Part shown: positions 1 through 227 of the stretch, piece by piece
Layout of the letters: every line of letters begins with the position of its first letter
Position numbering within the stretch: the first letter of the stretch is position 1
From: Escherichia coli
GTDB taxonomy: Bacteria > Pseudomonadota > Gammaproteobacteria > Enterobacterales > Enterobacteriaceae
DNA: 227 nt
Strand: one strand, 5' to 3'
Assembly (NCBI RefSeq): GCF_003334335.1
Contig: NZ_QOWQ01000235.1
Made by a program: the position numbers and the translations under genes
The notes under the pieces: model-generated
Database searches by the model: none
Told to the model about the DNA's origin: nothing
Seen by the model: only the letters and a program-made list of their open reading frames with translations

Positions 1-58
1 CTAGTGCGGCAATAATGTATGTTCCGATGCTGTAAATTTCCCCGGGTACCAGCCTTCC
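1..58 (-). other. Start of a non-collagenous C-terminal segment ([19 protein letters not shown]...) immediately after the last Gly-X-Y triplet; continues beyond window position 1.
   Basis: Gly periodicity is lost after G57 (next Gly are at residues 62 and 68). Composition switches to hydrophobic/aromatic residues (I, Y, L, A, V), and local GC falls from about 67% (positions 41-227) to about 40% (positions 1-40) by hand count. Confidence 0.55.
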
Positions 59-227
59 GGTTGGCCCTTGTGGTCCCTGTGGTCCGGGTTCACCTGTCGG
101 GCCCTGTGGACCTGTCGGGCCCTGTCTTCCTGTTTCTCCCTGCAAACCTCGTGGCCCCGTTTTACCCGCAGGACCTGCCGGACCAACCGGCCCCGGAACA
201 CCCTGTGCCCCCGCTGGTCCCCTTTCA
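1..227 (-). CDS. Partial CDS (both ends outside the window) for a collagen-like triple-helix repeat protein; reading frame has codons at window 226..224, 223..221, ... 4..2. No start or stop codon in the window.
   Basis: Hand translation of the reverse complement gives 75 codons with no stop. Gly occupies every third position for 19 consecutive positions (G3 to G57), giving 18 complete G-X-Y triplets, then periodicity ends at [19 protein letters not shown]. The truncated upstream codon ends in T, compatible with GGT (Gly), so the repeat probably continues beyond position 227. Such strict 3-residue Gly periodicity is not expected by chance. Confidence 0.8.
56..227 (-). repeat. Collagen-like Gly-X-Y coding repeat region (protein-level repeat, period 9 nt), probably continuing past the window edge at 227.
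   Basis: Triplets in order: [54 protein letters not shown], then a 19th Gly. X is Pro in 11 of 18 triplets; Y is Gln 6, Thr 5, Ala 3, Pro 2, Val 1, Arg 1. The + strand here is strongly C/T-rich, as expected for the antisense of GGN-CCN-NNN codons. Confidence 0.8.
93..125. repeat. Perfect 15-bp direct repeat (cctgtcgggccctgt on the + strand) at 93-107 and 111-125, separated by 3 bp (period 18 nt), lying inside the collagen-like CDS.
   Basis: Read directly from the sequence. On the coding (minus) strand the unit is cagggcccgacaggt, encoding Q-G-P-T-G twice within [12 protein letters not shown]. Confidence 0.85.

Follow-up and report, generated by a model that had tools for sequence, protein, structure and literature searches.

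In-frame triplet indels at short direct repeats of a collagen-like stalk: an EPclC-type prophage side tail fibre gene of Escherichia coli

A collagen-like side tail fibre gene and its relatives

The window (the whole stretch of 227 nt analysed here) was matched at 100% identity by Escherichia phage PhiR5_1 (PV340545.1, 46807-47033) and at 99% identity by four PhiR12 phages and by prophages in 36 of 5,426 complete E. coli genomes. It corresponds to residues ~372-447 of the 523-aa PhiR5_1 protein XSB41338.1, the product of a 1,572-nt gene that is flanked by J/lom and a tail fibre assembly gene, an arrangement also found in E. coli prophages. This J-lom-stf-tfa slot, J being the tail tip gene, is the position of lambda stf. 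Minus-strand frame 1 is the sole reading frame open through the entire window. The initial annotation had read the stretch as coding for Gly-X-Y triplets; the coding nature was borne out, with the correction that the reading frame lies on the minus strand. An open frame on the plus strand is the antisense of the collagen frame and was rejected as non-coding, since the annotated gene and all domain evidence are on the minus strand. No family was matched in an Rfam search of the window. The main parts of the window are as follows.

1-227, minus strand: segment from within a lambdoid prophage gene for a side tail fibre (stf-like, EPclC-type), assigned from the 100% match to PV340545.1, the gene position and the Pfam families PF08400, PF01391 and PF03406
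1-49, minus strand: beginning of the C-terminal domain, which is not collagen-like and is the presumed tip for receptor binding and/or trimerisation
50-58, minus strand: transitional GRL triplet, after the collagen run in the window translation
59-227, minus strand: 3' end of the second collagen-like (Gly-X-Y)n region, from the translation (39 triplets in the whole gene)

The domain order of the 523-aa product is PfN, Col, Pf2, Col and then a novel C-terminus, with the following residue limits.

Residues 1-134: prophage tail fibre N-terminal domain (PfN, PF08400; Pfam, E = 2.5e-42)
Residues 136-256: first Gly-X-Y region, in two runs (136-192 and 194-256) with one GDPGGPPG interruption between them
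Residues 263-304: PF03406 repeat (Pf2; Pfam, E = 8.7e-16)
Residues 315-431: second Gly-X-Y run of 39 triplets, from a Gly-X-Y scan, with PF01391 matches in the protein
Residues ~432-523: 92-aa C-terminal domain without a Pfam match

Tail fibre families of PHROG match the product, and its residues 1-91 match the 'Tail fiber protein' chain 9e7m_Ta in PDB (E = 4.6e-29). The gene downstream of the stf-like gene matches phrog_1141 and DUF4376 (tail fibre assembly). Two further observations were made on this downstream side. A YadA-like adhesin gene, annotated as 'YadA C-terminal domain-containing protein' or 'putative adhesin/invasin', lies just 3' of the tail fibre assembly gene (L001:1252-2325, with equivalents in L002-L005, L008-L010, L052 and L053) and is probably an accessory (moron) gene of the prophage. 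In PhiR12_1 (PV340549.1, L006:1-2254) the tail fibre assembly gene right after the stf-like gene is shortened to 126 nt; transposase and ATP-binding helper genes come next, and an insertion sequence seems to have disrupted tfa in this phage.

The C-terminal domain (92 aa; L001:3719-3997, ending in GIGLFQRAY) was searched separately, with the last 94-98 aa of the protein. Pfam gave no domain, a PDB sequence search gave nothing significant (best E = 0.15) and neither did a PHROG search (best E = 2.7e-4). Among 1.84 billion cluster representatives, only 8 clusters were found at E <= 1e-10, and the close relatives were all from E. coli. The domain weakly resembles, in several stretches (E 1e-8 to 1e-3), repeated modules of the long unannotated proteins P0125-P0130; P0125 itself has no significant Pfam domain. 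An AlphaFold2 model of the C-terminal domain had a mean pLDDT of 39.6.

The window thus very probably covers the end of the second collagen-like triple-helix stalk and the start of the C-terminal tip of an Stf homologue of the EPclC type, the stalk being subject to in-frame triplet indels via short direct repeats. Given the unbroken Gly-X-Y register, the fibre would be expected to form a trimeric collagen triple helix.

The EPclA-D family of collagen-like proteins of E. coli prophages was described by Ghosh et al. (2012, PLoS One 7:e37872, PMC3368898), who saw trimeric collagen stalks by EM and demonstrated the collagen trimer biochemically for EPclA and partly for EPclB; their biochemistry covers EPclA and EPclB, not the EPclC proteins. 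In the same paper, the EPclC example ECED1_2081 of E. coli ED1a is listed with 520 aa and Col domains of 118 + 117 aa, a G-X-P-G-G-P-X-G interruption in the first Col domain is described and Col domains are reported to vary in length among proteins of one EPcl architecture, usually by a multiple of three residues. The gene studied here resembles EPclC in having a PfN (PF08400) N-terminus and two (Gly-X-Y)n domains split by a Pf2 repeat (PF03406), a single G-X-P-G-G-P-X-G interruption in the first Col domain (here GDPGGPPG) and a C-terminus without a PfC (PF06820) match. As in EPclC, the long PCoil domain is missing, the collagen beginning at residue 136 right after PfN, the gene occupies a prophage side-tail-fibre locus and its Col lengths vary by multiples of three residues. 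Alleles L006 and L009 are of the same size as ECED1_2081, 520 aa with 118 + 117 collagen residues. At the sequence level, the locus has every defining feature of EPclC and no essential differences from it. Ghosh et al. already reported Col lengths differing by multiples of three, and therefore in-frame triplet length variation has been known for the EPcl family since 2012 and only the mapping of indels to sites is new: their paper tabulates domain lengths, whereas the 18-nt QGPTG duplication and the one-copy alleles described below are site-level detail added here.

Lambda Stf (with Tfa) shares with this locus the gene order J, lom, stf, tfa, a homologous PF08400 N-terminus (9e7m_Ta, residues 1-91), the Pf2 repeat and a downstream gene of the DUF4376 type. 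Lambda Stf is, however, not known to have a collagen-like stalk, and its distal receptor-binding part is different. The distal part of the present fibre is also set apart from known Stf/gp37-type fibres in that no homology of the C-terminal domain was detectable in the Pfam, PDB and PHROG searches.

Outside phages, the arrangement of a trimeric collagen-like stalk between an N-terminal anchor and a C-terminal globular domain recurs in BclA of Bacillus anthracis and in Scl1/Scl2 of Streptococcus pyogenes, which likewise have strain-specific numbers of Gly-X-Y triplets and alleles differing by whole in-frame units. The homology to these proteins is, however, confined to the Gly-X-Y repeat, and the fibre studied here belongs to a phage virion and not to a spore or cell surface. 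Their stalks consist of near-identical units in long arrays, with copy numbers that range widely, whereas here the 18-nt unit described below has at most two copies and the variation is spread over many short repeats. The NCBIfam models NF038329, NF038330 and NF046116 (Scl1/Scl2/Lcl) scored 146, 131 and 117 bits, far short of their curated cut-offs (325, 400 and 500), and membership in the Scl/Lcl adhesins was rejected because these matches are sub-threshold, compositional and cover the Gly-X-Y repeats alone.

An 18-nt tandem duplication and its one-copy alleles

A perfect tandem repeat of a 15-nt unit, CCTGTCGGGCCCTGT, had been proposed at 93-107 and 111-125. The unit is found at both places with the proposed period of 18 nt, and the exact match is one base longer, 16 nt (ACCTGTCGGGCCCTGT, at 92-107 and 110-125). 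It codes for QGPTG twice, and the five codons CAG GGC CCG ACA GGT are the same in both copies.

92-107, minus strand: copy of the 16-nt repeat that is 3' in the gene; plus strand ACCTGTCGGGCCCTGT, coding strand A CAG GGC CCG ACA GGT = QGPTG
110-125, minus strand: copy of the 16-nt repeat that is 5' in the gene; one 18-nt unit (e.g. 92-109) is missing from one-copy alleles

Tandem Repeats Finder reported a period of 18 with 1.9 copies and 94% matches in the window; its period-10 row is another description of the same array and was discarded as a separate feature. A weaker GGNCCN periodicity is also present, as the initial annotation had noted, but it is not limited to 72-131, given that the Gly-X-Y coding extends from ~50 to 227 and beyond, 39 triplets in all. 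Hairpin potential that would favour slippage was nothing special in the region (DNA fold z = 0.15), and a search of a plasmid collection gave only weak collagen-like matches, to Bacillus and Bradyrhizobium.

Whether a repeat of this length exceeds chance depends on the null model used. In mononucleotide shuffles of the window the longest repeat was 12 nt and 16 nt was never attained. Two collagen-aware null models were also used, one in which the same protein was given resampled synonymous codons and one in which random Gly-X-Y sequences were drawn from position-specific codon frequencies. Under both, an exact 16-nt repeat anywhere in the 351-nt collagen region had P ~0.065, and one at a distance of <=18 nt, that is in tandem, had P ~0.005-0.009. 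A permutation of 9-nt units gave P = 0.079 for a 16-nt repeat, and the synonymous identity of all five codons in both copies had P ~0.006. Based on these four null models the repeat is real and modestly exceeds the chance expectation for collagen-coding sequence, and it has the appearance of a genuine short tandem duplication, the unit being two triplets or 18 nt long (P/R-QGPTG).

It had also been predicted that related strains or metagenomes would hold alleles whose length at this site differs in frame, by multiples of 9 or 18 bp. Such alleles were found: copy numbers of the 18-nt unit differ, with one or two copies per allele, the one-copy alleles lacking exactly 18 nt, and a neighbouring 9-nt GPQ unit is variable as well. 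In the protein search, the shortened repeat stretch (10 instead of 16 residues) was carried by the fragments P0001, P0004, P0010 (17 member sequences) and P0018. In three independent draft assemblies (L012, L013/L014 and L015) the DNA is the same as the window save for one missing 18-nt unit, L013 additionally lacking one 9-nt GPQ unit. A synthetic one-copy query was matched without gaps in 5 complete E. coli genomes, at 100% in EC2 and three related SW0716xx isolates and at 99.5% in JNEC-KY204, and all five also hold a two-copy allele in another prophage. The one-copy gene of EC2 (NZ_CP058571.1, L052) is an intact ORF of 505 aa, the second collagen region of which has 37 triplets, 39 minus 2. 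Given that these are complete genomes, each with a two-copy allele elsewhere, and that they include an intact one-copy ORF, an assembly artefact is ruled out for practical purposes.

Close matches to this region among database proteins are nearly all marked 'partial', being pieces of 150-210 aa taken from the ends of contigs. Short-read draft contigs routinely end within these collagen-like prophage genes, which are repeated and multi-copy, and allele surveys of draft genomes are therefore biased. Less biased counts were obtained from IMG/VR and metagenomes, with patterns anchored in the flanks and loci that keep both flanks. IMG/VR contained 6 two-copy loci and 1 one-copy locus (1/7) and the gut metagenomes 28 and 1, respectively (1/29), and the one-copy share is ~5-14% of alleles. 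Three-copy alleles were found neither in IMG/VR with an exact three-copy pattern nor in the metagenomes with a flank-anchored pattern for 1-3 copies. The repeat is not perfect in every allele: among 34 two-copy alleles it was perfect in 23, and the other 11 have GGA for GGC in the second copy (92-107). With two copies only and ~5-14% of one-copy alleles, the 18-nt site is a weak hotspot rather than a hypervariable array.

The flanks of the one-copy alleles differ from those of the nearest two-copy allele at 0-9 positions per 588 flanking nt and from each other at 22-41 positions per 588, and the one-copy alleles occupy at least three haplotype backgrounds. This closeness to two-copy alleles, combined with the distance among the one-copy alleles, indicates that the event recurred, or was moved, on at least three backgrounds, and points to recurrent events. 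By parsimony, the direction was probably from two copies to one, as a deletion from the common two-copy state. What is documented at the 18-nt site is loss or an ancestral single-copy state only, not bidirectional slippage.

Length variants across the second collagen region

The 18-nt repeat is one of at least six polymorphic sites in the second collagen region. Among alleles with the same tip domain this region varies from 31 to 46 triplets, all differences being multiples of 9 nt, and the indels have their junctions in short direct repeats. The variants other than the 18-nt unit are listed here, by window position where they fall within the window and otherwise by the loci (L) or proteins (P) in which they were seen.

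68-85, minus strand: tandem 9-nt GPQ-GPQ repeat, plus strand TTGTGGTCC/CTGTGGTCC; 1, 2 or 3 copies in related alleles
86-157, minus strand: 72-nt block (24 residues), deleted in strain 2013C-3033, where the direct repeat GGGCCAC/GGACCAC contains the junction
152-187, minus strand: 36-nt block (12 residues), missing in phage PhiR12_5, where a GGGCC direct repeat contains the junction
L018: indel of a 9-nt GPA unit
Nine loci: 54-nt indel between GCAGGYCCGGCAGG repeats, the junction bearing the C of the left copy
L024 and P0001: 45-nt indel
L028, L045, L053 and P0014: fusion of both collagen domains with loss of Pf2

The GPQ unit is present in one copy in L002, L013 and L020 and in three copies in L008, P0006, P0008 and P0009. 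The 72-nt block of 86-157 is in other alleles replaced by an unrelated collagen block of 63 nt (GPQGPAGGRGPMGPPGLDGKT).

Larger changes of the stalk were also seen. The Pf2 repeat and the linker are gone in some intact alleles (L053:2271-3479, L028, L045 and P0014), including a form of 402 aa and one of 287 aa, in which no more than a very short piece of collagen lies between PfN and the tip. Even very large in-frame deletions of the stalk thus appear to be tolerated by the fibre. The database protein P0022, from a 4.25-Mb E. coli contig, begins out of frame (minus-strand frame 2 of the window, ~60-227) and continues as the in-frame C-terminal domain, which indicates a frame-shifting indel near the end of the collagen in that genome and that not all indels are in frame. 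Frame-lost, 'defective' EPclA genes were also listed by Ghosh et al. (2012, PMC3368898).

Origin and consequences of the length variation

The collagen-coding DNA is rich in G+C and contains many short direct repeats, at spacings that are multiples of 9 nt. In E. coli, loss of the DNA between repeats of this kind is well established. Replication slippage or short-homology recombination between these repeats probably removes, and presumably sometimes adds, whole triplets, and the recombination could act within one gene or between several stf paralogues of one chromosome. Selection would then remove the indels that break the frame or the register of glycine at every third residue that the triple helix needs. 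As only events that keep both frame and register would yield a functional trimeric fibre, surviving alleles would be expected to differ by multiples of 9 nt.

The paralogues themselves could be the main source of the variation, which would then be mosaicism. According to this explanation, recombination or gene conversion between the stf genes of co-resident prophages, and not local slippage, shuffled a single ancestral one-copy patch onto several backgrounds. Complete E. coli genomes with a match have a median of 3 related places, and up to 8, in different prophages, and one-copy and two-copy alleles occur in the same genome, as in EC2, where the 505-aa one-copy allele (L052) and a 402-aa two-copy allele (L053) are on one chromosome. 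Several stf paralogues per chromosome that differ in repeat state (EC2, SW0716xx and JNEC-KY204) are ample substrate for recombination between prophages. Exchange of whole blocks (the 24-residue block against GPQGPAGGRGPMGPPGLDGKT) and the Col1-Col2 fusions without the Pf2 repeat are in line with such exchange, and prophage recombination was discussed by Ghosh et al. (PMC3368898). However, the one-copy alleles closest to particular two-copy alleles differ from them, the repeat unit aside, at only 0-1 positions per 588 nt, which has the look of a local event, and a patch could be transferred only by crossovers lying no more than some tens of bases away to either side. We therefore consider it unlikely, though worth keeping in mind, that paralogue exchange was the main source, and favour in-frame indels via the short direct repeats of the stalk.

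The effect of these indels on the fibre can be estimated from the geometry of the collagen triple helix, which has a rise of ~0.29 nm per residue. One 18-nt unit would change the length of the stalk by ~1.7 nm of ~33 nm, and the observed range of triplets would correspond to a stalk of roughly 27-39 nm. A single 18-nt change is probably close to neutral.

A second alternative explanation is that selection acts on the short repeats as sites for tuning length. They would form a contingency-type locus by which the tip would reach its receptors through O-antigen or capsule of differing thickness. The spread from 31 to 46 triplets among alleles with the same tip would suit this idea, and in BclA the length of the filament is set by the number of triplets (Sylvestre et al. 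2003, cited in PMC10470788). Against it, the 18-nt site has two copies only, without expansions, the variant is rare, a third of the alleles have the repeat in a decayed, imperfect form and 1.7 nm is a small change. We regard selected tuning sites as improbable, and give a slightly smaller chance still to the proposal that the short direct repeats are kept because prophage side tail fibres could thereby change length fast and in frame, tuning the reach of the tip through O-antigen or capsule. If the repeats were kept for this reason, host range and the spread of prophage-borne genes would be affected, and they would be a phage counterpart of bacterial contingency loci.

It is scarcely credible that the repeat arose by chance from low-complexity, Gly-Pro-rich coding sequence and that the one-copy alleles are assembly or sequencing artefacts: a 16-nt exact repeat somewhere in the region is not very rare (P ~0.065-0.079) and the database proteins for the region are nearly all 'partial' where draft contigs break, but tandem placement has P ~0.005-0.009, the repeat of 34 nt in all is far below read length and typical assembly k-mers, and the one-copy allele was found in five complete genomes, several drafts, IMG/VR and a metagenome, from different projects and haplotypes.

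In-frame loss of whole triplets at short direct repeats is of little importance beyond annotation; the useful addition is that short direct repeats mark recurrent in-frame indels in this gene. This is relevant when multi-prophage E. coli genomes are typed or assembled; draft contigs of such genomes break at the gene.
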